Part shown: positions 3,315-60,951 of the stretch, one piece after another
Numbering within the stretch: the first letter of the stretch is position 1
Layout of the letters: the number at the start of each line of letters is the position of its first letter
Origin: Chitinophaga pinensis
GTDB taxonomy: Bacteria; Bacteroidota; Bacteroidia; Chitinophagales; Chitinophagaceae
NCBI GenBank assembly: GCA_945862385.1
Contig: CAMAXV010000003.1
Span: 156,522-220,521, forward strand
DNA: 64,000 nucleotides
Direction: 5' to 3'
Position numbers and translations under genes: made by a program
The notes under the pieces: model-generated
The model's database searches: none
The model's input: only the letters and a program-made list of their open reading frames with translations
Told to the model about the DNA's origin: nothing

Positions 3315-4253
3315 ATGATCCAGATGAATCAATTTATGGTTTCCAAAACCAGAATCGCTCCCACACCTAGCGGATTTCTTCATCTGGGAAACATTTTCTC
3401 GTTTTCTTTAACCGCCGGCCTTGCCAATGAGTTAGGTGCTAGTATTCTTTTACGAATAGATGATTTGGATACCACGCGCGTCAGAACAGCATATCTGGAA
3501 GATATTTTTGAAACACTGCATTTCATGGGCATACCATGGGATGAAGGGCCATTAAACACTGTAGATTTCAACGAAAACTGGACACAGTTGAAACGATTAT
3601 CAGTTTACGAGGAAAATCTGAAAATTATTGAAGAATCGGATTTGGTATTTGCATGTAACTGCTCCAGAAAAGTATTGAATGAAACAAACACCTTTATTTA
3701 CCCGGGTACATGTATCAAAAAGAACCTTCCGCTTGATGCGCCAGGTGTTTGCTGGAGATGGAAACATAAACTATCTGAGGAAATCAAGATGAATGATTTA
3801 GCAACTGGGGAAACACTGCATATGCGGCCCGCATTACAGCATCATTTTGTGGTAAGGAAACGGGATGGGATACCCTCCTATCAACTGGCATCAGTGCTGG
3901 ATGATAGTTTATTCAACGTAAACATGATTGTCAGAGGCGCTGATCTATGTGAATCTACCCTTATTCAATTACAAATTGCACAAAAACTGCAATTAAAAAC
4001 CTTTGATAAAACAGTTTTTTTTCACCATCCCCTGATTAGTGATGAGAATGGCCAAAAGTTATCCAAATCTGCCGGATCAACTTCGATTAGTTATCTGAGA
4101 AAAGAAGGTCTGAAATCAGAAACAATTTTCGAACTTATTTCGGCAGAATTGCATTTAAAAACAAAAGTTAAAAACTGGTATGACCTTTACCAACAGTGGA
4201 AAAAGGAAAATAGCCCATTATTTTTTCCAAACAATTCAAAAAAATCGAATTAA
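3315..4253 (+). CDS. gluQ: glutamyl-Q tRNA(Asp) synthetase (truncated GluRS paralogue)
   Basis: Class-I aaRS motifs RIAPTPSGFLHLGN (HIGH-like) and KLSKS are present. At ~310 aa it has no anticodon-binding domain, which is the GluQRS/YadB architecture. The start could also be the ATG at 3324 or 3336. Confidence 0.75.
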   Translation: MIQMNQFMVSKTRIAPTPSGFLHLGNIFSFSLTAGLANELGASILLRIDDLDTTRVRTAYLEDIFETLHFMGIPWDEGPLNTVDFNENWTQLKRLSVYEENLKIIEESDLVFACNCSRKVLNETNTFIYPGTCIKKNLPLDAPGVCWRWKHKLSEEIKMNDLATGETLHMRPALQHHFVVRKRDGIPSYQLASVLDDSLFNVNMIVRGADLCESTLIQLQIAQKLQLKTFDKTVFFHHPLISDENGQKLSKSAGSTSISYLRKEGLKSETIFELISAELHLKTKVKNWYDLYQQWKKENSPLFFPNNSKKSN

Positions 4254-4310
4254 ATTTTTTTTCATAAGAAATATAACTATTTTTGCAACCCGAATTTGAA
4301 TCACTGATTA

Positions 4311-4378
4311 GATCGGTAGTTCAGTTGGTTAGAATGCCACCCTGTCATCCCGAGTACTCGGGACGGGTTCAAGAGGCG
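4311..4378 (+). pseudogene. truncated/decayed tRNA-Asp copy (5' two-thirds only)
   Basis: Positions 4311-4347 match the first ~37 nt of the intact tRNA-Asp at 4414, with one mismatch in the anticodon stem (CCACC versus CCGCC). The sequence then diverges into a perfect palindrome, CCCGAGTACTCGGG (4349-4362). A remnant CGGGTTCAAG follows (versus CGGGTTCGAG in the intact gene). There is no complementary 3' acceptor strand. Confidence 0.7.
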
Positions 4379-4413
4379 AAATTCTCCAATAAAAAGTTCT
4401 TTAAAAAATATTT

Positions 4414-4487
4414 GGATCGGTAGTTCAGTTGGTTAGAATGCCGCCCTGTCACGGCGGAGGTCGCGGGTTCGAGTCCCGTCCGGTCCG
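4414..4487 (+). tRNA. tRNA-Asp (anticodon GTC)
   Basis: Hand-folded cloverleaf. The acceptor GGATCGG pairs with CCGGTCC. The anticodon stem is CCGCC/GGCGG with loop CTGTCAC. The T-arm is GCGGG-TTCGAGT-CCCGT and the discriminator is G. CCA is not encoded. Confidence 0.9.
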
Positions 4488-4490
4488 CAA
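4473..4490. repeat. attL core: 18-bp direct repeat GTCCCGTCCGGTCCGCAA (3' end of tRNA-Asp)
   Basis: An identical 18-mer recurs at 10579-10596. The match extends to ~25 bp with two mismatches (GTTCgaG versus GTTCcgG). Confidence 0.85.
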
Positions 4491-4501
4491 CTATAATCCA
4501 T

Positions 4502-4537
4502 AACACCTTGTAAACTAAGAAATTACAAGGTGTTTTT
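4502..4537 (+). terminator. hairpin plus T-run just inside the element, acting as terminator for the reconstituted tRNA-Asp
   Basis: AACACCTTGTAA-N9-TTACAAGGTGTT (12-bp perfect stem) followed by TTT. Confidence 0.6.
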
Positions 4538-4544
4538 AGTTTTA

Positions 4545-4572
4545 GGGGACGGTACAGGGGACGTTTAAATTT
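4545..4572 (+). repeat. tandem GGGGACG motif plus TTTAAATTT (copy 1, attL arm); putative integrase/excisionase arm-type site
   Basis: GGGGACggtaCAGGGGACGTTTAAATTT here versus GGGGACgttcCAGGGGACGTTTAAATTT at 10441-10468. Both copies have the same orientation. Confidence 0.55.
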
Positions 4573-4610
4573 TTTAGCCTATTTTTCACTAACTCATAAC
4601 CTGAAAAACA

Positions 4611-4985
4611 ATGTTCAACTTCTTTAAAAAAAGTAAACCCTCCCAAGAACCTTCTAATAAAAATGAAGGTAAAGAGGAAAGAACGCAAATAACAGTTGGA
4701 TATACTTATGAATATTTAGATGAGGTTCCAGTAGAAGAACGAACTCCTTGTAATGCTTTCTGTGCTAAATTAGAAGAATTATCAAGGGTGTATAGCATAG
4801 TAGATATTGAAAAAATGAGCACAAGGCTTGGATATAGTGTGTGGGATAGAAGAGGCGGATGGATTGATAAAGGTGATAAAGACGAAAATGGCGAACCCAT
4901 AGAACATCGATACGTTAAAGACGGTGTAGAGTATTACCATTGTAAACACCAATGGGTATCTAAAGTGTTAATAAAAAAGAACTAA
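4611..4985 (+). CDS. hypothetical protein (the only plus-strand gene of the element; cargo)
   Basis: 124-aa ORF with an ATG start, followed by a hairpin AATCGAA-N7-TTCGATT. It has a Lys/Glu-rich N-terminus and a CNAFC...HCKH cysteine/histidine arrangement. I recognise no family. Confidence 0.5.
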   Translation: MFNFFKKSKPSQEPSNKNEGKEERTQITVGYTYEYLDEVPVEERTPCNAFCAKLEELSRVYSIVDIEKMSTRLGYSVWDRRGGWIDKGDKDENGEPIEHRYVKDGVEYYHCKHQWVSKVLIKKN

Positions 4986-5111
4986 TCGAATATTTCTTTC
5001 GATTATCTTTCTGATAATATACGTTAAATCTTCTACAATCAACTATTGTGTTCCCGAAGGTCGTCCGTTTACATTTCCACTTATTCCCCTTGTAAATGGC
5101 ATATTGATAAA

Positions 5112-6194
5112 TTATTGTTGTTTACAATCCTTGTTTAAATCCCAAATAATTGGATATCCTTCTTCTTCCGTCAAAGCAATCCCTGAAGATTTGTCCGTAA
5201 TCAATACGAAATCCGCCAAATCGTAACCTTTGGACCTTTGCTCCTCGGTGGCGTACTTCTCCAATTTTGAAGAAACTCGGATTTGGCAACTTACAATCGA
5301 TTGTATTTCTTTGGCTTTTTCGGACCATTTTTCAAAGCAATTCAAATCCGGAAACAATACAACTTTCCTTCCTTCCAATACCTTACAAACTTCCCTTTCG
5401 GTCCATTTACAACCATTGCTTCCCCCGGTAGCAATCCAAACATAATTTGGATAATAAACCGAACAAATAATTGCGGTTTTCTCACTTTCGACAATGGCAA
5501 CTTGCCTTTCTGGATATAACCTCAATAAATGTTCCCCGAAGAAGCAATCCAATAAATTGGCTTCCTGGTTGTTTAATATCTTCTTCCCGGCTTTGAATAT
5601 CTTATCGGAGTAGTTGATATCCTCAAAATACTCTTTTATTTTATCGCTCCATTTGTAGGCGGGTTGGTGTGATTTGGTCCGATTGATTGTTCCGGTTCCA
5701 ATGGTGTAGTGCATTACTTTCGCTTGTCTAACTTTCAAATCTATATCAACAAACCAAAATGCGGTTGCTCCCTTCCAATGTTTGGAGTTGCCAATTAGAT
5801 AGTTTTCGGACCTTTCTTTGGCAACTTCATATCCAAATATTTGAATAAGGAAGGAAGCAAAATTGTTTTTCTCCCAATCTATCGTACTTCTATCGACAAT
5901 TTCTTCCGGCAAATAATCTATCGACTTCTTCGCTTCAACCTTCCTTATTTTGGGTTGTGTTCGTTTGTATTGGTAGGTGTGTTGTCTTTCGTGCTTTGTT
6001 TCCTCAAAGTATTGTTTCGGGGTGTAATGGTAACCACATTTATCTTCCCTATCACAACGACCAATGTGGTCCTGGAGTTGCTCCCCGGTTTCGGTGTCAA
6101 TGTACCTGGTAAATCGTTTTTGTTGGTTACAATTCGGACAACGATACTTTGAAGAAGGTCCACAATATTTTTGTAATGTAAATTTGTAACTCAT
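5112..6194 (-). CDS. zinc-ribbon plus Toprim-like protein, putative DNA primase of the element
   Basis: The N-terminal CPNCNQQ...RCDREDKCGYH is zinc-ribbon-like. The C-terminal VAIVESEKTA ... WIATGGSNG ... VVLFPDLN resembles the Toprim Glu and acidic motifs (DxN rather than DxD). NBU-type and P4-type elements carry comparable primases. Confidence 0.55.
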   Translation of the reverse strand: MSYKFTLQKYCGPSSKYRCPNCNQQKRFTRYIDTETGEQLQDHIGRCDREDKCGYHYTPKQYFEETKHERQHTYQYKRTQPKIRKVEAKKSIDYLPEEIVDRSTIDWEKNNFASFLIQIFGYEVAKERSENYLIGNSKHWKGATAFWFVDIDLKVRQAKVMHYTIGTGTINRTKSHQPAYKWSDKIKEYFEDINYSDKIFKAGKKILNNQEANLLDCFFGEHLLRLYPERQVAIVESEKTAIICSVYYPNYVWIATGGSNGCKWTEREVCKVLEGRKVVLFPDLNCFEKWSEKAKEIQSIVSCQIRVSSKLEKYATEEQRSKGYDLADFVLITDKSSGIALTEEEGYPIIWDLNKDCKQQ

Positions 6195-6284
6195 TTGTTT
6201 ACTTGTTTAAACAACTTTATTAAATAACTCAATTCACTTGTTTAGTTGTTTATAGCGTATATATATACGCTTAAACTAAACAAC
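6195..6284. promoter_or_regulatory. heptamer (TTGTTTA) iteron cluster plus 18-bp perfect palindrome; candidate origin or operator of the element
   Basis: TTGTTTA occurs at 6195, 6203, 6238 and 6246. The inverted form TAAACAA occurs at 6208 and 6277. TTGTTTAAACAA (6203-6214) is a 12-bp palindrome. AGCGTATATATATACGCT (6254-6271) is an 18-bp perfect palindrome with a (TA)n core. Confidence 0.5.
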
Positions 6285-6653
6285 TTAAAGAATGGTTTTA
6301 CCTTGAATGAAAACAACCTCAATTTTTTCTTTGTCATTTATTTGGATTGCTTCCTTTGGCTTTCCCAATATTCTATTCAATAATTCATTGAGAGTATAAA
6401 TATTACCTCTCTCGATACTTTTAACCAATGATTTGGCAATTGATAGTTCCAGGATTGTGGCGTTGGGATTTGTAAATACTTCGTGTAATTCAAAAATTGT
6501 CATTGATAATAAAACTCTCAATGTTTCAGTTATTTCGGTATTGGTATAACCGATTGAATTTAATTGAGTGATATATTTCTTCGGTCGTCCGTTCCCCTCT
6601 CTTCTAATATCGTAACCACTTTTAAATGGTTTCAAGTTTTGATTGTTTGGCAT
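6285..6653 (-). CDS. DUF5681-like / small-terminase-like DNA-binding protein (putative)
   Basis: The N-terminal NLKPFKSG...GNGRPKK and the later LNRILGKPKE resemble the N..NL.PFKPG..GNP.GRPKG ... R..GKP pattern. I associate that pattern with phage DUF5681 and TerS-like proteins. This rests on recollection only. Confidence 0.35.
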   Translation of the reverse strand: MPNNQNLKPFKSGYDIRREGNGRPKKYITQLNSIGYTNTEITETLRVLLSMTIFELHEVFTNPNATILELSIAKSLVKSIERGNIYTLNELLNRILGKPKEAIQINDKEKIEVVFIQGKTIL

Positions 6654-6657
6654 AATC

Positions 6658-6822
6658 TCACATTTGTTTCACATTAAATAAATCTAATTCTTTGATTGAC
6701 CAATCCATTTTTGGCAAATCCCAATCTTTCAATTCAATATTGGACCAGTCTTCCAAATCAATTGTATCCCAATTATCGAAATCTAAATAGGTCCAATCTT
6801 CAAATTCAAATGTATTTTTCAT
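6658..6822 (-). CDS. unlisted 54-aa acidic tryptophan-repeat ORF
   Basis: Hand translation: MKNTFEFEDWTYLDFDNWDTIDLEDWSNIELKDWDLPKMDWSIKELDLFNVKQM*. It is below the 60-aa track cutoff. Its ATG overlaps the last 17 nt of the upstream ATPase gene, and its stop lies 4 nt before the next ATG (6653). That layout suggests translational coupling. Confidence 0.45.
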   Translation of the reverse strand: MKNTFEFEDWTYLDFDNWDTIDLEDWSNIELKDWDLPKMDWSIKELDLFNVKQM

Positions 6823-7915
6823 AAACTCCTTTTCCTTTTTTTGGAACCTTATTTAATATCAACTTCTCATTTTGATAAAATGATAGAAACTCCAAGGCTT
6901 TATTATCCCCAAATTCAACTCCGTTTTTGCTCCAAATAGTTTTAATTCTATTTTTCAATTCGGTGTATTGAAATTGTGGTTTCAAATCAAATATTTCAAT
7001 TATCATCCTTAGGTGTACGTCCAATTCAAAATCGTGTGGAGATAGTATTTTTTTCTTTCTGTCCTTGTCTTTCGGTTTCCAATTCTCGTCAATGTATGGA
7101 ATTTTGTTATCGTCAATTCTAATCGCAAATGGTTCAAATTCCTTCTCCCTACATTGTTCCGGTTCAACGATTGATATTGACTTTTCTTTGTCGTCCTTCG
7201 TTACTGAAATAATAGTTTCCCCCTTATTGACTAACTCGGTTCCCAAATGTCCCCGGGCGTTGTTATCTCCTTTATTTTGGTGTATAACACACATACAATG
7301 GATATTCAGTTCCTCGGTCCATTTCATCAAATTTCCGGTTGTTTCAACGGCTTCCTGGGAGTTGTTAATATCAAAAACTAAATCTCTTATTCCGTCAATG
7401 ATAATCACTCCCAAATCCGGTGTATTGTAAATAATCTCTTTTATTACATCAATACGTTGATTTGTGGAGTATTTTCTCAAACTATGTATTATGAAATCTT
7501 CCGTTTTACTTATCTCGGCTAATTGCAAAATCCTACGTTGTATTTCAGCAACTTTTTCCCTTGATTGTTCGGTATCAAAAAATATCACTTTCTTTTTATC
7601 ACTCGGCAGTATTCCCCTTACCATTGAATTTGTATTGTCGTTTCTTAATAGTGCCGATACCAACAATGAAGTGAGAAATGTTTTTTTACTCTTTGCCTTA
7701 CCAATTATGACCGAAAAATTTCCGATTGTTGCAATTATTGAGTTTGAATTATTTGATATTATTTCCAAACAAACCGGGGGGAGTTCCAACATCTCCGATA
7801 TATCAACTCGGCTTTCTTTTATTATTTCCTCGGTTGTCATTTTATCCGCTGAAACCTTTGTTTTTTTTTGATTTTCTACCTCTTTAAAATCTTCATCTAT
7901 ATCTATTATTGGCAT
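6806..7915 (-). CDS. RecA/DnaB-like P-loop ATPase (AAA_25/RepA-like), putative replicative helicase or loader of the element
   Basis: Walker A is IIGKAKSKKT and Walker B is VIIIDGIRDL. The segment CVIHQNKGDNNARGHLG resembles the RepA/DnaB-type sensor region. Confidence 0.6.
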   Translation of the reverse strand: MPIIDIDEDFKEVENQKKTKVSADKMTTEEIIKESRVDISEMLELPPVCLEIISNNSNSIIATIGNFSVIIGKAKSKKTFLTSLLVSALLRNDNTNSMVRGILPSDKKKVIFFDTEQSREKVAEIQRRILQLAEISKTEDFIIHSLRKYSTNQRIDVIKEIIYNTPDLGVIIIDGIRDLVFDINNSQEAVETTGNLMKWTEELNIHCMCVIHQNKGDNNARGHLGTELVNKGETIISVTKDDKEKSISIVEPEQCREKEFEPFAIRIDDNKIPYIDENWKPKDKDRKKKILSPHDFELDVHLRMIIEIFDLKPQFQYTELKNRIKTIWSKNGVEFGDNKALEFLSFYQNEKLILNKVPKKGKGVYEKYI

Positions 7916-7917
7916 TA

Positions 7918-7980
7918 TTTTGCTAATTTTGAAGTGAGTAAATACGAAGGTTTCAACCTTCCGTTTTTGCTAATTTTGAA
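7918..7980. repeat. two copies of the 16-bp direct repeat TTTTGCTAATTTTGAA (7918-7933 and 7965-7980)
   Basis: The copies are exact, spaced 47 bp start to start, and lie between the HTH gene stop and the ATPase ATG. Each contains TAATTTTG, a match to the Bacteroidota -7 box TAnnTTTG, but on the strand opposite to the genes. Confidence 0.6.
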
Positions 7981-8017
7981 CACTTTGAAGGGGAGATATT
8001 ATCTCTCCTTTATTGTT

Positions 8018-8302
8018 TTACTTAGTTCTAATTTGTGATAGAGAGTTTTCTAATTCGGACCGCTTATATCTTACCCGGGAAGCAATACGATATCCGGTAA
8101 CTTTGCCGGTTTTGGTCCAATCCAATAATGTTGGCAGAGATACTCCCAATAAATTGGACGCTTCTTTCCTGGTTAAAAATTCGGTATTTGGAGAAGATTT
8201 GTTTACACCTTGAAGGATTGGCGTAATTTTGTCGAGTATTTCATTTGAAATCTCGTTTTTGAGTTGCTCCAACGGAAGTGATGTGAAAATGATATTTAAC
8301 AT
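8018..8302 (-). CDS. helix-turn-helix excisionase-family DNA-binding protein
   Basis: LTRKEASNLLGVSLPTLLDWTKTGKVTGYRIASRVRYKRSELE is the MerR/excisionase-type HTH (HTH_17-like) common in Bacteroidota mobile elements. Confidence 0.7.
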   Translation of the reverse strand: MLNIIFTSLPLEQLKNEISNEILDKITPILQGVNKSSPNTEFLTRKEASNLLGVSLPTLLDWTKTGKVTGYRIASRVRYKRSELENSLSQIRTK

Positions 8303-8382
8303 AAATATTAATTATTTATGCAAACTTCTCATTACTTAATTGCCTTTACTCGCTCATACTCTCTCACCACTCTCTTACTTTG

Positions 8383-9075
8383 TTATTCTTTTCGATTTTT
8401 TATAGTAACAAATCTTTGATTATCTAATTCCAACGAGTTTTTGTTTGGATTAATTTCATTTTCAAGATTGTTATGTGTAGTTTCCACATCAAACAATTCC
8501 ATTAAATACTTCGCGCTCTTTTTGTAACTATTTGTAGGTAACTCTATCCATCCTTTTCCAACTAATTCAAGTATTAAAAAACCTAATTGAGAGGGCTTCC
8601 CTTTCCATTTTATCTTTTTAGATAAGATATTTTTTTGAAAATCTTCAATTTCGTCGTCTTTAACTCTCATTTCAATAAAATCTTCAAACCCCGACTTAAT
8701 CTCATTGAATTTTTTTATTGTAATACGTTTATGTTGTTTTTGGTGCCAAGCAATTGGAAAGGGGCGTTCTATAACTCCTTCAAAGTACCAAAATGATTCA
8801 TCATCCCAATTGCTAATTTTTTTGACTTTGTTTTCAACCTCATTTTCTTTGATTCTACTATACTCATTTAAATATCGTTCATTGTAATGTTGAATTAAAA
8901 ACTGAAATCTATTTTCCAGTTCTGAGAAAAGGTCTTTCAAATTTCTTACGAAATTCGAATTGGAAGAATTATGTTTTTGATATTGGTTAGAAAAGTAATG
9001 GGGTATATCTTTTTCTTTTAAACCAATTGAAAATTCAAAAATTGAATGATAATCCTTTGGAAGTAAAAACGTCAT
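8383..9075 (-). CDS. hypothetical protein, possibly RteC-like regulatory protein
   Basis: 230-aa ORF directly downstream of the integrase. The C-terminal KWKGKPSQLGFLILELVGKGWIELP...SAKYLMELFDV resembles the C-terminal winged-helix-like block of RteC-family proteins as I recall it. Confidence 0.35.
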   Translation of the reverse strand: MTFLLPKDYHSIFEFSIGLKEKDIPHYFSNQYQKHNSSNSNFVRNLKDLFSELENRFQFLIQHYNERYLNEYSRIKENEVENKVKKISNWDDESFWYFEGVIERPFPIAWHQKQHKRITIKKFNEIKSGFEDFIEMRVKDDEIEDFQKNILSKKIKWKGKPSQLGFLILELVGKGWIELPTNSYKKSAKYLMELFDVETTHNNLENEINPNKNSLELDNQRFVTIKNRKE

Positions 9076-9103
9076 TTGCTAAAGTTTGAACAAACTAAAA
9101 TTA

Positions 9104-10393
9104 TCAAACAATCTTCATATTGTTTCTTTTCTCCCAATGCAATTTTAATAGTTGGGCGTGGTCGGTTGGGTTCAATTTAATATATCTCAAAAACGCTTTC
9201 TCGGTCCTATGACCTGTTACCGCCATTATAGTAATAGTTGGTGTTCCGTTCAAATATTCATTTGTTGCAAAGGACCTTCGGGCAGCATGGGTGGTCAATA
9301 ATTCATATTTATTAAATCTCTTTAAAACCTTCATACCTCCCTTTGTAATGGTTGTTTCAAATGGTGTATGCAGAGATTGAACCATAACTCCTAACTCCTT
9401 CAAATAATCATTAAATCGTTGGTTTGTAATTGCTCGGGGTAACTCTCCATTGTGTTTTTGGATAATTCGTGTAACAACCTGGTGTATTGGTATAACAACC
9501 GGGTTCCCGGTTTTTGTTTGTTCCTTAATCTCAATAAATCCGTTTTTCATTTGGTCGGGTTTCAATATTGAGAAATCGGAGAAACGCAATCCCGAATAAC
9601 AACCAACCAAAAACAAATCCCGGACGTTGTCCAATCTTTGATTGCTTGACAAATCCAAATTTTCAATCTCTTTCAACTCGGTTTCACTCAAATAAATACT
9701 ATCGGTTTGCTCACTTGTTGTACTGAATTTTCTACTTTTAAATTGAAGGTTAGTATTTATCCCCCTCTCGGTCGCTTCGTTTAAAATGGTTTTGATTGTC
9801 TTAATATCCTTTCCAATGGTATTGGTGGCTAAATTTAGACGCTTTGAGAGATACTCGGTAAAATCGGTGTAGAAATCAACGTCAATGGTATTGAAGTCAA
9901 TTATCCGCTTCCTTGTGGCTTGAAACTCCTTTAATCTTCGGAAAGTGTTTTTGTATACCTGGATTGTTGCTTTGCTATATGGCTTCCCGGAAGTTGGTTG
10001 AACACGTCCGCCATTTACACTTTGATTAATCAAGTTTTCAAAGAAGGGGAAGAAGGATTTTTCTTTTTCCGTTTTGGGTTCAATTTTCTTCAATTCCTTA
10101 TCTAACAACAATTTGAGTTTCTCCGGGTTAGGTACCTTGTTATTGTGGTCGTTCAAATAGTTCCGATAAATGGTTTGAATGTCGGAAGATATGCGGTTCA
10201 ATCTCTCGTTAAACTCGGGGTGTTCCCTAAATTTTGCAATTTGCTTCGCTCGTTTGGTTTTATTGTCCCAATACTTTGGATTAATCTTTTCCGAAATATA
10301 GAATTTGAAATCAAATCCTTCGTAAAATATCCGGGCGTAAATGGAAGATTGAGTTTGGGATTGGGGATTTTTTAAGGTAAATACTATCGTCAT
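9104..10393 (-). CDS. int: tyrosine-type site-specific integrase (Bacteroidota phage-integrase family)
   Basis: The catalytic region shows GLRFSD (Arg), HAARRSFAT (HxxR) and VTGHRTEKAFLRYIK (His...Tyr). At 429 aa it also has an N-terminal arm/SAM-like region. It lies adjacent to attR. Confidence 0.9.
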   Translation of the reverse strand: MTIVFTLKNPQSQTQSSIYARIFYEGFDFKFYISEKINPKYWDNKTKRAKQIAKFREHPEFNERLNRISSDIQTIYRNYLNDHNNKVPNPEKLKLLLDKELKKIEPKTEKEKSFFPFFENLINQSVNGGRVQPTSGKPYSKATIQVYKNTFRRLKEFQATRKRIIDFNTIDVDFYTDFTEYLSKRLNLATNTIGKDIKTIKTILNEATERGINTNLQFKSRKFSTTSEQTDSIYLSETELKEIENLDLSSNQRLDNVRDLFLVGCYSGLRFSDFSILKPDQMKNGFIEIKEQTKTGNPVVIPIHQVVTRIIQKHNGELPRAITNQRFNDYLKELGVMVQSLHTPFETTITKGGMKVLKRFNKYELLTTHAARRSFATNEYLNGTPTITIMAVTGHRTEKAFLRYIKLNPTDHAQLLKLHWEKRNNMKIV

Positions 10394-10440
10394 ATTGTTG
10401 AAATTTTGAACAATACGAAGATAATTAACAAATCAATCCG

Positions 10441-10468
10441 GGGGACGTTCCAGGGGACGTTTAAATTT
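10441..10468 (+). repeat. tandem GGGGACG motif plus TTTAAATTT (copy 2, attR arm)
   Basis: See 4545-4572. 24 of 28 positions are identical and the orientation is the same. Confidence 0.55.
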
Positions 10469-10578
10469 AATTTCTTTTAATCTTACTTTTCTTTAATTTC
10501 CTTTGTAAATCAATATTGACAAGTATTACAAGCGAAATATTAGTGAAGTTCAATTTGAGTTAAATCAACTATGTTCCG

Positions 10579-10596
10579 GTCCCGTCCGGTCCGCAA
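10579..10596. repeat. attR core: displaced 3' fragment of tRNA-Asp (GTCCCGTCCGGTCCGCAA)
   Basis: Exact copy of 4473-4490. Confidence 0.85.
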
Positions 10597-10597
10597 A

Positions 10598-10626
10598 AAG
10601 CCCTTGAGTTTCAGGGGCTTTTTTGT
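10598..10626 (+). terminator. original tRNA-Asp terminator hairpin
   Basis: AAGCCC-N10-GGGCTT followed by TTTTTGTTTTT, immediately after the attR tRNA fragment. Confidence 0.6.
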
Positions 10627-10696
10627 TTTTGGTATGAATTACGTTTAATTTTTTGGGGTGATTTGACTTCACTAAATATATTCTGCTAACTCAACA

Positions 10697-11242
10697 TCAT
10701 TCCCTGAATTTCTTGTACATCCGAATAGCAAACATCAAAAGAATTATCAATAACAGTAAGGCAACCAATCCCCATACTGCACTCATGGCCTGCTTTACCA
10801 CCACAAGCATCACAATGGCAAAAAGGAAAATAGTGGCAACTTCATTCCATATCCTCAACTGATTGGAACTATACCTGAATATCCCCTGAATTTGCTGCCT
10901 GAAAATCATGTGTAATGACAGATGATATGCATATAGCAACAAAACAAAAAGTAATTTGACAAGAAGCCAACGACCTTCGGGATGAAAAACTATCCGAACA
11001 TAACCGCTGGAAATAAGAATCCAGATGCCCATTACCAGTGTGATAATGGCTGATGGCCAGGTTATGCCAAACCAAAGCCGCTTCAACATAACTGTGAATT
11101 GCTTTTGTAAAACAGACCGTTCAATATCGCCTAATTGTTGTGCTTCAGTATTGTAGATGAACAACCGGGGCATATAAAAAAGCCCTGCAAACCAGGTCAC
11201 CACAAAGATGATGTGCAGGGCCTTTACATAATCTGCTGTCAT
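10697..11242 (-). CDS. hemJ: protoporphyrinogen IX oxidase, HemJ type (CopD-like membrane protein)
   Basis: N-terminal KALHIIFVVTWFAGLFYMPRLFIY, four to five predicted TM helices, ~180 aa, and a position next to hemH. Confidence 0.75.
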   Translation of the reverse strand: MTADYVKALHIIFVVTWFAGLFYMPRLFIYNTEAQQLGDIERSVLQKQFTVMLKRLWFGITWPSAIITLVMGIWILISSGYVRIVFHPEGRWLLVKLLFVLLLYAYHLSLHMIFRQQIQGIFRYSSNQLRIWNEVATIFLFAIVMLVVVKQAMSAVWGLVALLLLIILLMFAIRMYKKFRE

Positions 11243-11245
11243 AAA

Positions 11246-12286
11246 TCAGGATAAAATCATTTTAGCTGAACCTGACTTAACATCGTCCACATAGCCTTTC
11301 AAAGTACTAACCCAATCTGGGTGTGTATTCAAGCAGGGAATCATGGTAAATGACTCACCGCCGGCATGTATAAACTCCTCCTTGCCTTCTTCAGCAATTT
11401 CTTCCAAAGTTTCCAGACAATCACTCACGAATGCCGGACAAGCAACGAGCAACTTCTTTACGCCTTCTTTGGGAAGGTGCTCCAATCGGTTTGCAGTGTA
11501 GGGCTTGAGCCATTCTTCACGACCTAACCTTGACTGAAAAGAATATTCGAATTTATCTGCAGGGATACCCAGCTTTTCAACAACAAGCATGGTTGTTGTA
11601 TGGCAGTGCTGCCTGTAACATTGTTTGTGAGCAGTTGAATCAACCGAACAGCAATTATTCACTTTCAGACAATGACATCCGGTAACGTCTCCTTTCCGGA
11701 TGTGCCGCTCTGGTACACCATGATAACTAAATAGAATCTTGTCATAATCCTGCTCCAGGTAAGGCGCTATGCTGTTTGCCAATGCATTGATGTATTCTTC
11801 ATCCTTGTAATAAGGCTTGATAAATGTGAGCTTGAATGGATAATTATTTTTATCATAAACTTCCTGTGCATAAGCAACAGCAGTTTCATAACTACTCATG
11901 GCATAATGGGGATACAAAGGGATGGCAATTACTTCATCGAGTCCATCTACCTGACTCATCAGGCTGTCAAATGCAGCCTTGGGAGTAGGATTTCCATATC
12001 GCATGGCAATCTCTACCGGCTCTTCCACGTGTTGTTGAAGTGCCTGCTGCAACTGCCGGGTCAACACCATCAGCGGTGAACCTTCGTCTGTCCAGATTGA
12101 CCGGTATGCCTTTGCAGACTTGGGCGAACGAAATGGTACGATAATACCCCGCACAAGCAATAACCTGAGCAGGTAGGGGTAATCAATCACCCTTTCGTCC
12201 ATCAAAAATTCACTCAGGTATTTCCGGAGATCTTTCACAGAGGTTGAATCAGGAGACCCAAGGTTCATCAGTAGAATGGCTTTCAT
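11246..12286 (-). CDS. hemH: ferrochelatase
   Basis: 346 aa. The N-terminal LLMNLGSPDS and the later SYHGVPERH and CPAFVSDCLETLEEI blocks are typical ferrochelatase motifs. Confidence 0.9.
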   Translation of the reverse strand: MKAILLMNLGSPDSTSVKDLRKYLSEFLMDERVIDYPYLLRLLLVRGIIVPFRSPKSAKAYRSIWTDEGSPLMVLTRQLQQALQQHVEEPVEIAMRYGNPTPKAAFDSLMSQVDGLDEVIAIPLYPHYAMSSYETAVAYAQEVYDKNNYPFKLTFIKPYYKDEEYINALANSIAPYLEQDYDKILFSYHGVPERHIRKGDVTGCHCLKVNNCCSVDSTAHKQCYRQHCHTTTMLVVEKLGIPADKFEYSFQSRLGREEWLKPYTANRLEHLPKEGVKKLLVACPAFVSDCLETLEEIAEEGKEEFIHAGGESFTMIPCLNTHPDWVSTLKGYVDDVKSGSAKMILS

Positions 12287-12440
12287 AAAATTTTATTATT
12301 ATAAGTACACAAAACTAAGTTATCAGCCTTCCTGGGCTTACCAGTACAGTCACTGAACTGTCAAAAAAACGGAATCAGGCAATTAAAATTGCCCTAAACA
12401 CAATAAAATCAGCGAATTGACATTTTAGTGACAAGACAAC

Positions 12441-12471
12441 TTGTGCGTGGCAAACCCTCGCTATACTTTTG
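12441..12471 (+). promoter_or_regulatory. putative sigma-A promoter of the hemACDEFBL operon
   Basis: cTTG (12440-12443), a 20-nt spacer, then TACTTTTG (12464-12471) fits the Bacteroidota TTTG-N19-21-TAnnTTTG consensus. It lies 20 nt upstream of the ATG at 12491. Confidence 0.4.
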
Positions 12472-12490
12472 TATTCGAAACCCCCTAATC

Positions 12491-13708
12491 ATGGTTTACG
12501 TCAAATCGACACCCTTTCATTTTTGCATGGCCGGAGTAAACTACCGGAAAACTGATGGTCACCTGAGAAGCAGGTATGCACTCAATGATACCCAGTATGA
12601 AAACCTGCTGCAGCTGGCAGGCTCCTTCCAGGTTGAAGAGTGCTTTGTTATTTCTACCTGCAACAGGACTGAGATATACGGAACCACTGACAACGTGCAT
12701 AAACTCATGCAATTGCTTTGTACCCATACAGAGGGGGATTTGCCTGGATTTGAACAAATCGCATATTTAAAAAAAGGGGAAGAAGCAGTTCGTCATCTAT
12801 TTGATGTGGTATCCGGCTTGGATTCTCAAATACTTGGAGATTATGAAATTGTTGGCCAGGTAAAGAAATCTGTAAAAATTGCAAGACAGGCAGGAATGCT
12901 TGGGGCATATACAGACAGGGTTAGCAATCTCGCATTCCAATGTTCCAAGAAAATCAAAACTTCTACCTGCCTGAGTGGTGGCACTATTTCAGTATCCTTT
13001 GCTGCCATCCAATATCTCAAGGAGAATTTAAAAACAACAATCAATCAAAATATCTTGTTGATTGGTACAGGTAAATTCGGAAGAATAACATGCAAAAATC
13101 TTGTAGACTACCTGAACACTAAAAACATAACCCTCCTCAACAGATCTATGTATAAGGCTGAGGCACTGGCTCAGGAACTGGGACTGAAAGTTGCCCCGAT
13201 GGAGGAACTGCCAAACCTGTTGAAAACCGCTGATGCAGTCCTTGTTGCTACAAATGCAAAAAGACCAATTATCCTGAAAGAACACCTCAATAACGGAAGA
13301 GAAATGGTTGTAATTGATCTTTCTATTCCATTCAATGTAGAAGAAAGCGTTAAAGAACTCTCCTCTGTAAACCTGATTAACGTTGATGACCTGTCGAGGA
13401 TAAAAGATGAGACGCTTGAAAAAAGAAATGCAGAAGTCCCCAAAGCAAAAGCTATAATTGATACCCATATTCAGGAATTTTTTGAATGGGTTTCCATGAG
13501 AAGATATGTTCCTGTGATGCAGTCTCTTAAATCTAAACTGCTTGAAATACAGGAAGCCCAGCCATACTTGATGGCTACCTCATCGAAATCAACAGAGAAA
13601 AGAATTCAGAATGCCATCAACGGCATGGTGAATAAAATGCGCAGGCAAGATAACAAAGGCTGCCACTATCTCGAAGCCATCAATGAATTCATGACTGTAA
13701 CAGCCTGA
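12491..13708 (+). CDS. hemA: glutamyl-tRNA reductase
   Basis: STCNRTEIY active-site block and a Rossmann LLIGTGKFG motif. I prefer the ATG at 12491 over the track start 12428, which would lie upstream of the predicted promoter. Confidence 0.85.
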   Translation: MVYVKSTPFHFCMAGVNYRKTDGHLRSRYALNDTQYENLLQLAGSFQVEECFVISTCNRTEIYGTTDNVHKLMQLLCTHTEGDLPGFEQIAYLKKGEEAVRHLFDVVSGLDSQILGDYEIVGQVKKSVKIARQAGMLGAYTDRVSNLAFQCSKKIKTSTCLSGGTISVSFAAIQYLKENLKTTINQNILLIGTGKFGRITCKNLVDYLNTKNITLLNRSMYKAEALAQELGLKVAPMEELPNLLKTADAVLVATNAKRPIILKEHLNNGREMVVIDLSIPFNVEESVKELSSVNLINVDDLSRIKDETLEKRNAEVPKAKAIIDTHIQEFFEWVSMRRYVPVMQSLKSKLLEIQEAQPYLMATSSKSTEKRIQNAINGMVNKMRRQDNKGCHYLEAINEFMTVTA

Positions 13709-13709
13709 T

Positions 13710-14639
13710 ATGGAAAAAATCATCCGCATTGGAACACGTGAAAGTCAGCTCGCAGTATGGCAGGCTACAACCGTACAGGCACTGCTTGCAGACAAAGGAT
13801 TTAAAAGTGAGCTTGTGCTGATTAAAAGTGAAGGAGACATAGATCTGAAAACGCCCTTGTATGCTATGGGTGTGCAGGGCGTGTTCACCAGAAGCCTTGA
13901 TATAGCATTGCTTAATGAAAGGATAGATATAGCAGTGCATTCCATGAAAGACGTTCCTACGCAACTTCCTGAAGGAATCATACAGGCTGCAGTGCTGCAA
14001 AGAGGTCCTGTTAAAGACCTGCTTGTTTACAAGGGAAAATGGAATAAGGAAACCGACTTACAAGAAGCAAAAAGTTTAAACCTGCAGATTGCGACAAGCA
14101 GTGTTCGCAGAAAATCACAGTGGCTGAACAGGTTCCCGCTATCTGACATCCATAACCTGAGGGGTAATGTAAATACTCGCCTCCGGAAACTGGCTGAAGA
14201 AAACTGGGATGGAGCAATTTTTGCAGCTGCAGGATTGGAAAGAATTGGACTCCGACCCGAAAACTCAATTGAACTTGACTGGATGTTGCCGGCACCTGCA
14301 CAAGGTGCTATCATGATTGTATGTGGCAAACAGGATCAAAGCGCTTTCGAAGTATGCCAGCTTCTGAATGATGAGCCTACAGCACTATGCACAAAAGTTG
14401 AAAGAGATTTTTTGAGCGCTCTGATGGGAGGCTGCTCTACCCCTATAAGTGCACATTCCAACATCACTGGTGATGAACTGCATTTCAAAGGAGAAATTTT
14501 ATCCCTGGATGGCCAACAAAAAGCTTCGCTGGATACAAAAATCCAGTTAGATCAGGCATATAATTATGGTAAAACAGCAGCCGATCAGATACTTGCGCAA
14601 GGCGGACAAGCCATTGTGGATGCTATGAAACATGCCTGA
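13710..14639 (+). CDS. hemC: hydroxymethylbilane synthase (porphobilinogen deaminase)
   Basis: IRIGTRESQLAVWQA, AVHSMKDVP and RGNVNTRLRKL motifs. Confidence 0.9.
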   Translation: MEKIIRIGTRESQLAVWQATTVQALLADKGFKSELVLIKSEGDIDLKTPLYAMGVQGVFTRSLDIALLNERIDIAVHSMKDVPTQLPEGIIQAAVLQRGPVKDLLVYKGKWNKETDLQEAKSLNLQIATSSVRRKSQWLNRFPLSDIHNLRGNVNTRLRKLAEENWDGAIFAAAGLERIGLRPENSIELDWMLPAPAQGAIMIVCGKQDQSAFEVCQLLNDEPTALCTKVERDFLSALMGGCSTPISAHSNITGDELHFKGEILSLDGQQKASLDTKIQLDQAYNYGKTAADQILAQGGQAIVDAMKHA

Positions 14640-15348
14640 TACACATTACCATATTTTATCCACCAGACCACTGGATAAGTCCCTTATTGAAGAGGCCGAA
14701 AAGCAAGGTATCACCATTGACCAGGCCGACTTCATCGCAACAAAACCCATACATACACCGGAAATAACCGAAAGCATCCAATCAGTTGCCCGCAAAAAAA
14801 TAACTGTTGTTTTCACCAGCATGAATGCGGTGGACGCGGTGTACGCCCAGCTTCAGGAAGCCTTACCCGCATGGGATATCTTCAGTATTGGACATACCAC
14901 ACAACAATTAATTCACAAATATTTCAGCAAAGCTGTGATAGTTGCTTCAGCTGATGACGCTGGTCAACTTGCCCGGGAAATTATTGCGAAAGGCGACATC
15001 AGAGCGGTTACCTTTTTTTGTGGAGACAGGAGAAGGGATGAACTACCGGATCTTTTAAAAAGTAATGGCATCCTGGTCAATGAAATAATCGTTTACCAAA
15101 CGCTTATGATACCAGCTATTACTTCAGCAGTTTATGACGCTATTCTATTCTTCTCTCCCAGTGCTGTGGAAAGTTTTTTTACATGCAACACACTACCGGC
15201 ACATACAATTCCGTTTGCGATAGGAAAAACAACAGCTGAAGCAATCAGGCAATACACCACAAATAAAATCATAACCGGCAATGCTCCCGGTAAAAATTCA
15301 CTGGTTAACGAGGCTTTGTTTTATTTTAAAAATAAAAACACAAACTAG
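14632..15348 (+). CDS. hemD: uroporphyrinogen-III synthase
   Basis: 238 aa. It overlaps the hemC stop by 8 nt, sits between hemC and hemE, and has the VFTSMNAV and FFSPSAV repeats of the two-lobed HemD fold. Confidence 0.75.
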   Translation: MPDTHYHILSTRPLDKSLIEEAEKQGITIDQADFIATKPIHTPEITESIQSVARKKITVVFTSMNAVDAVYAQLQEALPAWDIFSIGHTTQQLIHKYFSKAVIVASADDAGQLAREIIAKGDIRAVTFFCGDRRRDELPDLLKSNGILVNEIIVYQTLMIPAITSAVYDAILFFSPSAVESFFTCNTLPAHTIPFAIGKTTAEAIRQYTTNKIITGNAPGKNSLVNEALFYFKNKNTN

Positions 15349-59050: not shown

Positions 59051-59100
59051 GTTAATTGCTTTAATGCTGTCTATCACGAAGATAAACATTGTTTCGTTCG

Positions 59101-59171
59101 CACGGGCACTCGGATTCGAACCAAGATCAAAGGTTTTGGAGACCTCTATTCTACCATTGAACTATGCCCGT
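59101..59171 (-). tRNA. tRNA-Trp (anticodon CCA)
   Basis: Hand fold of the reverse complement. The acceptor ACGGGCA pairs with TGCCCGT, the anticodon loop is CTCCAAA and the T-arm is TGGTTCGAATCCG. It occupies the conserved tuf-tRNA-Trp-secE position. Confidence 0.9.
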
Positions 59172-59261
59172 TCTTTAAGAAACAAAGTACCCGGATAAGA
59201 ATCCAGGTACTTTGTTATTTATGCTTTTGGAGGAATGCAACTTAGTGCACCCTTCCATGGC

Positions 59262-60449
59262 TTATTTCAGGATCTCAGTAACCTGTCCGGCACCAACTGT
59301 ACGACCACCTTCGCGGATCGCAAATTTCAGACCTCTTTCCATGGCGATAGGCTGAATCAATTTAACTTTCAAATTGATGTTATCACCAGGCATAACCATT
59401 TCAGTACCTGCTGGCAGTTCACACTCACCGGTTACGTCTGTAGTACGGAAATAGAACTGAGGACGATATTTGTTGAAGAAAGGAGTATGACGTCCACCTT
59501 CATCTTTGCTGAGTACATAAACCTCACCATTGAACTCGGTGTGTGGAGTGATTGAACCTGGCTTACAAATTACCATACCGCGACGGATCTGGCTCTTTTC
59601 AATACCACGGAGCAACAAACCTGCATTATCACCAGCCTCACCTTCGTCAAGAAGCTTGCGGAACATTTCAACTCCGGTAACAGTTGAAGTAAGTTTATCT
59701 TCCTGCATACCAACGATTTCAACACCCTCACCAACTTTGATCCTTCCACGCTCAATACGACCAGTAGCAACTGTACCACGACCAGTAATAGTGAATACGT
59801 CTTCAACAGACATAAGGAAAGCCATATCAACTGGACGAGGAGGAAGCGGAATATACTCGTCAACAGCATTCATCAACTCATTTACTTTAGCAACCCACTG
59901 TTCTTCACCGGCAAGAGCACCAGTTGCAGAACCCTGGATAACTGGAGTATTGTCTCCGTCAAATCCACGCTTGGACAACTCTTCACGAATTTCCATCTCA
60001 ACAAGCTCAAGCAATTCAGGATCATCAACAAGGTCAACCTTGTTCATGAATACAACAATACGGGGAACACCTACCTGACGGGCAAGCAGGATATGTTCTT
60101 TGGTTTGGGGCATTGGACCATCGGTAGCAGCAACAACAAGAACAGCACCATCCATCTGTGCAGCACCTGTAATCATGTTCTTTACATAGTCAGCGTGGCC
60201 CGGACAGTCAACGTGCGCATAGTGACGAGCATCAGTCTCGTACTCAACGTGTGCAGTATTGATTGTGATACCCCTTTCTTTTTCTTCAGGAGCACCGTCA
60301 ATCTCATCATACTTCTTGGCTTGAGCAAGACCCCTCTTGGAAAGGATGTCAGTGATTGCCGCAGTCAGTGTGGTTTTACCATGGTCAACGTGACCGATCG
60401 TACCAATGTTTACGTGGGGTTTGTCCCGCTTAAAAGTCTCTTTAGACAT
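59262..60449 (-). CDS. tuf: elongation factor Tu
   Basis: [18 protein letters not shown] and NKVD motifs; 395 aa. Confidence 0.98.
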
Positions 60450-60498
60450 TGTTATCCGTTTTTGTTTGTTTTAACTTTGTTACCTATTGAAACGCCCG

Positions 60499-60529
60499 CA
60501 AAGTTATTCACTTTGGGACGATATTCAAA
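60499..60529 (-). promoter_or_regulatory. putative sigma-A promoter of tuf
   Basis: On the minus strand: TTTG (60529-60526), a 19-nt spacer, then TAACTTTG (60506-60499). The TAACTTTG box ends ~50 nt upstream of the tuf ATG. Confidence 0.4.
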
Positions 60530-60552
60530 AGTTATTTTCCCGGTAAGGTGTG

Positions 60553-60624
<72 letters not shown>

Positions 60625-60656
60625 TTGATTGTCCGCACAGCCAGGCGGCATGTTTG

Positions 60657-60729
60657 AGCGGGAGACGAGGCTCGAACCCGCGACCTATAGCTTGGAAGGC
60701 TATCGCTCTACCAACTGAGCTACTCCCGC
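60657..60729 (-). tRNA. tRNA-Gly (anticodon TCC)
   Basis: In the reverse complement the acceptor is GCGGGAG/CTCCCGC. The anticodon stem-loop is ATAGC-CTTCCAA-GCTAT. Confidence 0.9.
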
Positions 60730-60777
60730 ATTTGCATAACGTTAGGATTCAACCCTTACCGGCAGGATAAAGGCGAG

Positions 60778-60860
60778 TGGGCAGGAGTGGATTCGAACCA
60801 CTGAAGTCGAAAGACAGCGGATTTACAGTCCGCCCCATTTGGCCGCTCTGGAACCTGCCC
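60778..60860 (-). tRNA. tRNA-Tyr (anticodon GTA), class II with long variable arm
   Basis: In the reverse complement the acceptor is GGGCAGG/CCTGCCC. The anticodon loop is CTGTAAA and the length is 83 nt. Confidence 0.9.
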
Positions 60861-60878
60861 GCACATTCAGCTTACCTG

Positions 60879-60951
60879 AGCCAGAGAAGGGACTCGAACC
60901 CCCGACCAGCTGATTACAAATCAGCTGCTCTACCAACTGAGCTACTCTGGC
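60879..60951 (-). tRNA. tRNA-Thr (anticodon TGT)
   Basis: In the reverse complement the acceptor is GCCAGAG/CTCTGGC. The anticodon stem-loop is CTGAT-TTGTAAT-CAG region, with anticodon TGT. Confidence 0.9.

Follow-up and report, generated by a model that had tools for sequence, protein, structure and literature searches.

Phage-inducible chromosomal islands (PICIs), among them the SaPIs and the islands of the EcCICFT073 type, are roughly 10-15 kb in size and combine interference with piracy. To our knowledge, the phage satellites that have been characterised experimentally belong almost entirely to the Proteobacteria, the Firmicutes and, recently, the Actinobacteria. The Bacteroidota are a dominant phylum in guts, lakes and oceans; as far as we know, their satellites are represented by metagenomic hints only, in the form of virion-encapsidated elements (VEIMEs) integrated in Flavobacteria. 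NBU-type elements (NBU1, NBU2 and Tn4555) are small, insert at tRNA 3′ ends and carry an arm-binding integrase, accessory open reading frames (ORFs), a primase-like gene, a Mob relaxase and an oriT. In NBU1 the primase is PrmN1, encoded alongside the integrase, small accessory ORFs and the Mob protein. The phage-inducible chromosomal minimalist islands (PICMI) of the Vibrionaceae are described, in outline, as integrating at the 3′ end of fis, using a three-protein core for excision and replication and being packaged as concatemers (bioRxiv 10.1101/2023.07.18.549517). Among the marine VEIMEs reported by Eppley et al. 2022 are elements integrated in Flavobacteria and elements with a small terminase that is closest to those of co-occurring phages (PMC9618062). 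The element considered here is a 6.1-kb island in a tRNA-Asp gene of Chitinophaga pinensis contig CAMAXV010000003.1. It lies in a stretch of 64,000 nucleotides that was analysed as a whole (the window), and coordinates refer to this stretch unless another contig is named.

The island is probably a minimal integrative phage satellite of the PICI/VEIME type, which would redirect the terminase of a helper phage. No relaxase, large terminase, portal, capsid, tail or lysis family was found among its eight ORFs in Pfam, PHROGs or NCBIfam; for relaxases, none of the three collections gave a family at E ≤ 0.1 for any of the eight. Genes for integration, for replication and for a small-terminase (TerS) homologue are present. 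Since these are present and capsid and conjugation genes are absent, capsid theft is the likely route of transfer, and on its gene content the island most likely spreads by taking the capsids of a common group of ~33-kb phages. The original prediction, made from the sequence, had described a candidate phage satellite devoid of relaxase, capsid and tail genes. The gene searches agree with that description and support the satellite reading, in which induction, packaging, helper dependence, the packaging (pac) site, interaction with the large terminase (TerL) and the identity of the helper are inferred.

The island is a precisely bounded insertion in the 3′ end of the tRNA-Asp gene. The target, tRNA-Asp (GTC), lies at 4414-4488 on the plus strand according to ARAGORN and at 4414-4487 in the Rfam match (RF00005, 68 bits). 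An exact 18-bp direct repeat, GTCCCGTCCGGTCCGCAA, occurs in two copies, the attL core at 4473-4490 and the attR core at 10579-10596, where ~5e-4 such repeats per 8.5 kb are expected by chance. It stretches to 24 nt if two mismatches are allowed. The attL core forms the 3′ end of the tRNA, contributing its last ~15 nt, and the original terminator of the gene, a G+C-rich hairpin with a T-run, follows directly past the right copy at ~10597-10626. The insert itself (4491-10596) is 6,106 bp long and 88% coding, with a G+C content of 0.340 vs 0.412 in the rest of the window. Seven co-oriented ORFs occupy its minus strand with gaps of -17 to 102 bp, or up to 126 bp when the single convergent plus-strand ORF at the left end is counted. 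The bounding repeats, the AT-rich insert, the rebuilt tRNA 3′ end and the tightly packed gene array with its convergent cargo ORF had all been described correctly from the sequence.

The original prediction proposed a search of related genomes for an empty attachment site (attB), and one was found. A degenerate junction pattern was scanned over public metagenome contigs and returned two loci. In the empty site, metagenome contig L185 (JACCEC010328295.1), the tRNA-Asp is followed directly by AAAGCCCTTGAGTTTCAGGGGCTTTTTT. This contig has 86% identity to positions 10573-10949 downstream of the island and 89% identity to positions 4234-4347 upstream of it. Because it joins the tRNA-Asp straight to the terminator and flank, the island is a genuine insertion with precise ends.

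A decayed second copy of tRNA-Asp is located at 4308-4385, its 5′ half being 95% identical to 4412-4451. It is called as a tRNA by neither ARAGORN nor Rfam. The copy adjoins the upstream context that precedes the single functional tRNA in the empty-site contig, and the functional tRNA-Asp of the window lies 104 bp further along. A perfect palindrome, TCCCGAGTACTCGGGA (4347-4362), stands inside the decayed copy, and TCCCGAGTAC is common to this palindrome and the attP core of a sibling circle (L187, described below). The decayed copy may be the scar of an earlier integration.

The 122-aa protein encoded at 6285-6653 (minus strand) is assigned as a small-terminase homologue of the DUF5681 family by synteny together with remote and fold similarity. 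The Pfam model DUF5681 (PF18932) has a gathering cut-off of 27.5 bits, and homologues at 46-55% identity to the 122-aa protein score 27.2-31.0 bits on it. The family phrog_15125 is matched by 19/20 members of the protein family, with a best E-value of 1.9e-13. The best fold matches of the 122-aa model in BFVD are DUF5681 phage proteins (4.7e-6 and 1.4e-5). In tblastn against the phage collection the protein itself gave no match even at E = 1. Its family members P0151 and P0142 (35-54% identity) matched small ORFs of Xanthomonas phage PBR31, Acetobacter phage phiAX1 and Bacteroides phage Versailles. In all three phages the matched ORF adjoins or overlaps the large terminase on its upstream side, with the portal gene next, and hhalign aligns the three proteins with the 122-aa family at 95-97% probability.

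The nearest relatives outside islands, P0142 and P0146, are 48-54% identical over the full length and are encoded on contigs of 32.5-32.7 kb together with ERF, NinG, a DNA methylase and HNH. A Terminase_6N/6C large terminase lies directly downstream of the homologue on these contigs, and beyond it come large structural ORFs and a prohead protease (Peptidase_S78_2). More than 520 IMG/VR contigs have a homologue, and 80 of these loci were retrieved. The large terminase (Terminase_6N/6C) is directly downstream in each of the 80 and in 6/6 loci from ENA, JGI and Logan (86/86 together), and the integrase, ATPase and primase of the island are found in 0/86. Across the retrieved IMG/VR loci, the homologue is 45-54% identical to the island protein and the adjoining large terminase is 65-79% identical to that of phage locus L018. 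The longest phage contigs with a DUF5681 TerS cluster at 32-35 kb. Since the 122-aa protein has 45-54% full-length identity to a protein that adjoins TerL upstream in all 86 phage loci, it is read as a small-terminase homologue, as its N-terminus had suggested in the original prediction.

The island and phage proteins (phage loci L018-L103) have in common an N-terminal NLKPFK..NGRP(K/R)KY motif and a C-terminal IEVVF..GKTIL tail. Between island and phage the central region has diverged more, to a consensus identity of 43-49%. The island proteins, 69-100% identical among themselves, form a clade that stands apart from the phage clade, the 45-54% identity between the two extending over the full 120-122 aa. 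By these comparisons the island carries a putative, diverged small-terminase copy of an abundant phage lineage, with neither large terminase nor structural genes. Two structural candidates were discarded. The small terminase of Sf6, at rank 15 in the Foldseek search of the 122-aa model against the PDB, was rejected as noise, and a PDB search with the family profile matched designed helical repeats and TRF1 alone, which was judged not meaningful.

The island also retains a truncated stub of a second DUF5681-like gene, MPFTRGISGNVNGRPSGTQ with its stop, at 5043-5102 on the minus strand. The first 19 codons remain, and a 124-aa ORF fills the rest of the slot. An intact second DUF5681-like gene (98-101 aa) follows the primase in sibling elements L014, L190 and L192 and in a 6,116-bp contig; the DUF5681 matches of these second paralogues are precomputed and weak or faint. 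The stub in the window and the intact gene in the siblings indicate that the ancestral island had two DUF5681 paralogues.

Sibling islands, for which the original prediction had also proposed a search, were recovered in both circular and integrated form. Short metagenome contigs hold most of the close relatives, at 70-88% identity for the primase and 69-97% for the 122-aa protein. Contig L013 (JGI 3300013014) has a 68-bp terminal overlap that closes it to a 6,004-bp circle. Contigs L186 (JGI 3300045441, 127-bp overlap) and L187 (ENA ERZ28594154, 55-bp overlap) are the same 6,194-bp circle from two sources. Two further contigs, one of 6,116 bp (JGI sample 3300059473) and L190 (6,496 bp), are circularly permuted. 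In the circles and the permuted contigs, the primase gene joins int across the attP region. An integrated sibling, L014, is 7,072 bp long with both att cores present, and L006 is the same island as that of the window from another assembly.

All siblings compared keep the gene order Int, variable ORF, HTH_17, AAA_25, ~55-aa ORF, 122-aa ORF and primase. They come from many independent metagenomes, and their identity to the island is 53-89% for 5/7 proteins and 33-57% for the variable 230-aa ORF. Because circles of 6.0-6.2 kb were assembled in three datasets, the sibling family excises, or at least exists, as unit-length circles; the window copy presumably takes the same form. L013 (2985-3032) and L187 (3705-3770) each have about five 10-bp iterons (AATTGCAAC) in the interval from the primase gene to the attP arm sites, and these repeats are candidates for a function in replication origin or packaging. 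The window shows no enrichment of them and its island has no equivalent, so that no origin can be assigned there.

Excision and integration would be the task of two proteins. The tyrosine integrase (429 aa; 9104-10393, minus strand) is of the Bacteroidota-type architecture, matching Arm-DNA-bind_5 (3e-4), Phage_int_SAM_5 (3e-17) and Phage_integrase (2e-8) in Pfam as well as phrog_1 (4e-24). Next to int, a predicted AlpA/excisionase-type regulator of 94 aa (8018-8302, minus strand) matches HTH_17 in Pfam (7e-9), TIGR01764 (1.9e-8) and excisionase PHROGs. The original assignments of both proteins, the latter as an excisionase-type helix-turn-helix (HTH) protein, are borne out by these matches. 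A hairpin, AACACCTTGTAA...TTACAAGGTGTT, is located just inside the left end at 4502-4534 and has its counterpart at the same place in the attP regions of circles L013 and L187. A left arm-type site of tandem GGGGACG half-sites, GGGGACGGTACAGGGGACGTTTAAATTT (4545-4572), is a 93% identical direct repeat of the right arm-type site, GGGGACGTTCCAGGGGACGTTTAAATTT (10441-10468), which has the same tandem half-sites. These are candidate binding sites of the arm-binding domain of the integrase. The attP junction of the island would read …CAACTATGTTCCGGTCCCGTCCGGTCCGCAACTATAATCC…. In the sibling circles the attP layout is arm pair, hairpin, core, arm pair and int. Circle L187 has the GGGGACG-type arm motif around its attP core, as in the window island, and L013 and L014 have another tandem motif (GTGTACCGCAA x2) at the same arm-site positions.

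The replication genes form what is inferred to be a split helicase/primase module for autonomous replication, again in keeping with the first description of the locus. The primase-like protein (360 aa; 5112-6194, minus strand) matches Zn_ribbon_16 (1.8e-27) and DUF6371 (1.2e-47) in Pfam and PG0870_Nterm in NCBIfam. Over 91% of its length it aligns, at 31% identity, with the 'DNA primase/helicase' of the crAss-like phage csAssE-Sib. Invariant acidic residues in its family alignment (E236, E238, D283, D325 and D328) are compatible with a Toprim-like centre. The second component is a P-loop ATPase of the RepA/DnaB-like AAA_25 family (369 aa; 6806-7915, minus strand; Pfam 2.5e-9), as anticipated, and is presumed to be the replicative helicase. 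Its phage relatives, at 26-30% identity, are the 'DNA primase/helicase' of Flavobacterium phages and one protein or more in each of Olleya phage Harreka_1 and Flavobacterium phage 11b.

The remaining island genes are small or fast-evolving. An acidic, Trp-rich protein of 54 aa with DW/NW repeats (FEDWTYLDFDNWDTIDLEDWSNIELKDWDLPKMDW) is encoded at 6658-6822 on the minus strand and at the same position in all siblings. Its counterparts in L007-L014 are 53-74% identical, the L013 version being longer through a 48-nt internal repeat, and it has no family match in Pfam, PHROGs, NCBIfam or PADLOC. Between int and the HTH gene lies a 230-aa protein (8383-9075, minus strand) whose siblings are 33-57% identical. 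No family was assigned to it in Pfam, PHROGs, NCBIfam or PADLOC, and its model (pLDDT 70) has no fold match in the PDB. It has 7 word-indexed homologues, and an exhaustive HMMER search gave 351 uncharacterised relatives that have the C-terminal ~90 aa in common with it. The original label of this ORF, 'RteC-like', is rejected, as neither the protein nor ten distant homologues have a significant Pfam family. The 230-aa and 54-aa proteins are, speculatively, candidates for sensing or interfering with the helper. The convergent cargo ORF (124 aa; 4611-4985, plus strand) belongs to a 90%-identity cluster of 4 members and has no match in Pfam, PHROGs, NCBIfam or PADLOC; other genes fill its slot in siblings. 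Elsewhere in the window, a cluster of five tRNAs (Trp, Thr, Gly, Tyr and Thr) at 59100-60951 on the minus strand is ordinary housekeeping and unconnected with the island.

The backbone of the island extends well beyond its close siblings. The DUF6371 primase has 3,170 word-indexed homologues, and a tblastn scan of species-representative genomes gave 568 relatives. It is spread over the Chitinophagales, Saprospiraceae, Cytophagales, Sphingobacteriales, Flavobacteriales and Bacteroidales. In the scan of GTDB species representatives the best match was 47% identical, and no close siblings were found. Among 80 species-representative loci searched with phmmer, 18 have the integrase and 13 the AAA_25 ATPase; others have a DUF3987 helicase. 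When a census of Pfam families was taken over 130 ORFs from 12 related elements, one Terminase_2 small terminase appeared. Relaxase, large terminase, portal and capsid are absent from the top 25 Pfam families of that census, which includes element L156.

In three loci a Terminase_2 small terminase lies downstream of the primase, with E-values of 1e-34 to 2e-28. The first, L108 (element 5256-15082), is from a Saprospiraceae metagenome-assembled genome (MAG) and has a DUF5681 gene and the type I methylase HsdM besides Terminase_2. The second, L156 (element 5816-12572), is from a Sphingobacteriales MAG, and its ATPase matches that of the island at 2e-78. The third, L150 (element 5517-14404), is from the cultured Pontibacter ummariensis NKM1 and encodes Int, HTH_17, DUF3987 and the DUF6371 primase as well as Terminase_2. 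No TerL, portal or capsid family was found among the scanned ORFs of L108 and L150. An IMG/VR contig of ~8.8 kb (L246) also has an integrase, a primase and a Terminase_2-like gene, with a 70-bp terminal repeat in the stretch examined. One integrative-replicative backbone is thus found repeatedly with small terminases of different families, and such recurrence is the hallmark of PICI-like piracy.

Relatives of the backbone were also seen in viral collections. Five IMG/VR contigs (L194, L196, L197, L199 and L204) of 4.7-7.8 kb with terminal overlaps of 114-127 bp are apparently circular and carry a primase relative 39-42% identical to that of the island. Thirteen GenBank scaffolds labelled 'UNVERIFIED Bacteriophage sp.' and human faecal samples from Mexico (L001-L005, H7-H14; MT83xxxx) have ATPase or primase relatives at 33-45% identity. 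They probably stem from the virus-like particle (VLP) viromes of Bikel et al. 2021, whose preparations were 0.22-µm filtered and treated with chloroform and DNase (PMC8361208). One of them, L002 (6,328 bp), encodes an integrase, an HTH protein, an AAA_25-like ATPase and a primase. The scaffolds were rejected as evidence for encapsidation of the island, given the 33-45% identity and the lack of a TerS gene in L001 and L002. For the backbone alone they are suggestive, and its gut relatives may also travel in particles.

The proposed cycle starts from the island seated in the tRNA-Asp 3′ end, where its position is observed. The integrase and the HTH_17 excisionase/AlpA-type protein would recombine the 18-bp cores through the tandem arm sites to release a 6,106-bp circle. 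Judging from homology to phage primase-helicases, this circle would be copied by the AAA_25 helicase and the Zn-ribbon/DUF6371 primase of the island itself. Upon infection by a helper, the 122-aa TerS homologue would recognise a packaging site on island DNA and recruit the TerL of the helper. Concatemers of the island would then fill helper capsids, ~5.3-5.6 unit lengths making up a headful of 32.6-34 kb. The helper is proposed to be the abundant phage lineage with contigs of up to ~32-35 kb and a TerS 45-54% identical to that of the island. After injection, the island would re-integrate into tRNA-Asp.

Several observations weigh against this satellite reading. The TerS role of DUF5681 proteins is suggested by gene position together with remote and fold similarity. 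The 122-aa protein itself has no Pfam DUF5681 match even at E = 10, and Foldseek comparison of its monomer model (pLDDT 71) with the PDB gave nothing better than E = 2.5, none of it significant. No pac or cos site was identified, and a comparison of island and phage DNA for a shared segment of this kind gave similarity at the two ends of the terS coding sequence only. With TerS identity at 45-54%, none of the sampled phages stands out as a cognate helper. No large-terminase similarity was detected anywhere in the window, which thus holds no helper prophage. In the viral-dataset search proposed at the outset, IMG/VR scans returned only phage-type TerS and distant primase relatives, which gives no direct evidence of the island or its close siblings inside virions. 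A scan with the single primase sequence gave no relatives in IMG/VR, and an alignment-based scan gave relatives at 31-46% identity only. For the circular contigs, a plasmid-like episome or tandem copies would be an equally good explanation. A Relaxase (PF03432) gene, lastly, lies 0.9 kb outside int in the Pontibacter element.

That relaxase gene belongs with a conjugative explanation of the island, as an integrative mobilisable element of the 'oriT-only' kind that lacks a relaxase and is moved by the relaxase and mating pore of a co-resident conjugative element. The Int/HTH/helicase/primase backbone is indeed widespread in Bacteroidota, as the 568 primase relatives attest, and NBU1 of Bacteroides has its integrase, small accessory ORFs and primase next to Mob. 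Other phyla commonly have elements of the oriT-only kind (bioRxiv 10.64898/2026.01.13.699239). On this explanation the DUF5681 protein would bind DNA in an accessory or regulatory capacity, which leaves unexplained why a full-length phage small-terminase homologue is retained (with two DUF5681 paralogues in siblings) and why unrelated small-terminase families recur on the same backbone. The P. ummariensis relaxase gene adjoins the related element, but it lies on the strand opposite to int and outside it, where the att site should end the element. Relaxases are also missing among the island ORFs and from the top 25 families of the 12 related elements, and mobilisation of this kind is considered quite improbable. 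Had the island arisen by decay of a prophage, or as a chance leftover of a larger element with int and a few early genes retained, it would likewise present integrase, excisionase, primase/helicase and TerS homologues without structural genes. Decay is difficult to reconcile with tight packing, intact ORFs and 88% coding density, with a seven-gene order conserved across many independent metagenomes, and with complete 6.0-6.2-kb circles and two intact att sites; this origin is very improbable indeed.

A different use of the same genes is conceivable, in which the island is a self-replicating episome or defence island that is not packaged. Its TerS homologue would serve as a decoy, poisoning the terminase of infecting phages, and spread would occur by other routes, such as vesicles, transformation or generalised transduction. 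In favour of this, bulk metagenome assemblies often contain sibling circles, the TerS homologue has no more than 45-54% identity to any phage TerS sampled, and the comparison of island and phage DNA yielded no pac site. Anti-phage functions are frequent on satellites and islands, and L108 has HsdM. PADLOC, however, finds no defence protein on the island beyond a generic HTH match. A 6-kb element that devotes nearly all of its coding capacity to integration, replication and TerS better fits a transmissible parasite, and interference is compatible with piracy, as known PICIs do both. This explanation is regarded as unlikely, and the island is still best taken as a probable satellite that redirects a helper terminase.

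As such a satellite, the island shares with PICIs site-specific integration, int at one end, an AlpA/excisionase-type HTH protein and its own primase/helicase module. It also shares a small-terminase homologue unaccompanied by large terminase, capsid or lysis genes, and a variable accessory slot at the far end. It differs in size, 6.1 kb vs ~10-15 kb, which brings it nearer to PICMI and VEIMEs, and has no recognisable Stl-type divergent repressor, capsid-size redirection genes or Ppi/Rpp homologue. Its split replication module (AAA_25 and DUF6371), its TerS of the DUF5681 family and its Bacteroidota host are further differences, and induction by a helper is, for the island, a prediction. From P4-like satellites the island differs in the absence of the Psu/Sid/Delta and alpha primase-helicase families, none of which was found among its ORFs in Pfam or PHROGs.

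PICMI, compared here by their outline description, resemble the island in minimal content, with a core of int, AlpA-type protein and primase and no capsid-remodelling genes. They are packaged as concatemers, which the size ratio to the candidate helpers predicts for the island as well. The differences are that the island sits at tRNA-Asp in Bacteroidota with a TerS homologue and a separate helicase, whereas PICMI sit at fis, are restricted to Vibrionaceae, and have no packaging gene mentioned in their outline. VEIMEs, again likened by description, come from environmental bacteria and are likewise small and integrative; they encode integrases, excisionases, AlpA and primase/helicases, and some of their modules add a small terminase. 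They are defined by concatemeric reads from marine virions, whereas encapsidation of the island is a prediction and its samples appear to be freshwater, its host appearing to be a freshwater-type, uncultured member of the Bacteroidota. NBU-type elements agree with the island in being small Bacteroidota integrative elements with a tRNA 3′ end as target, an arm-binding integrase, small ORFs and a primase-like gene. They differ in their Mob relaxase, which is missing among the island ORFs; a small-terminase homologue is present instead. In function the island thus resembles PICIs, through TerS piracy, and in size PICMI and VEIMEs.

The original view that such elements had not been characterised in Bacteroidota needs qualifying. 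Since Eppley et al. 2022 reported encapsidated elements integrated in Flavobacteria and modules that carry TerS (PMC9618062), the kind of element is already known. The particular family, with a DUF6371 primase, an AAA_25 helicase, a DUF5681 TerS, a tRNA-Asp target and a size of 6-7 kb, appears to be undescribed in the searchable literature. It can be proposed, tentatively, that this is a minimal satellite family of the Bacteroidota in which a phylum-wide Int/HTH_17/helicase/DUF6371-primase backbone has repeatedly captured different TerS families (DUF5681 and Terminase_2) to parasitise different phage lineages, the helper in this case being the abundant lineage with contigs of up to ~32-35 kb.

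The family is compact and well delimited: its att sites are defined, circular forms exist and its core of seven genes is conserved. The nearest relatives of its TerS gene point to a specific and abundant phage lineage as candidate helpers, so that satellite-helper-host triads in uncultured freshwater Bacteroidota become a testable question. A likely function, that of a small terminase, is thereby assigned to Pfam DUF5681 and phrog_15125. The DUF6371 'PG0870-related' proteins, which are widespread, are likewise suggested to have a role, namely as primases for small mobile elements in the Bacteroidota. If the proposal of a satellite family with repeated TerS capture is true, capsid piracy and not conjugation would move a large proportion of the small, 'cryptic' integrative elements in the Bacteroidota, including their gut relatives in VLP viromes.

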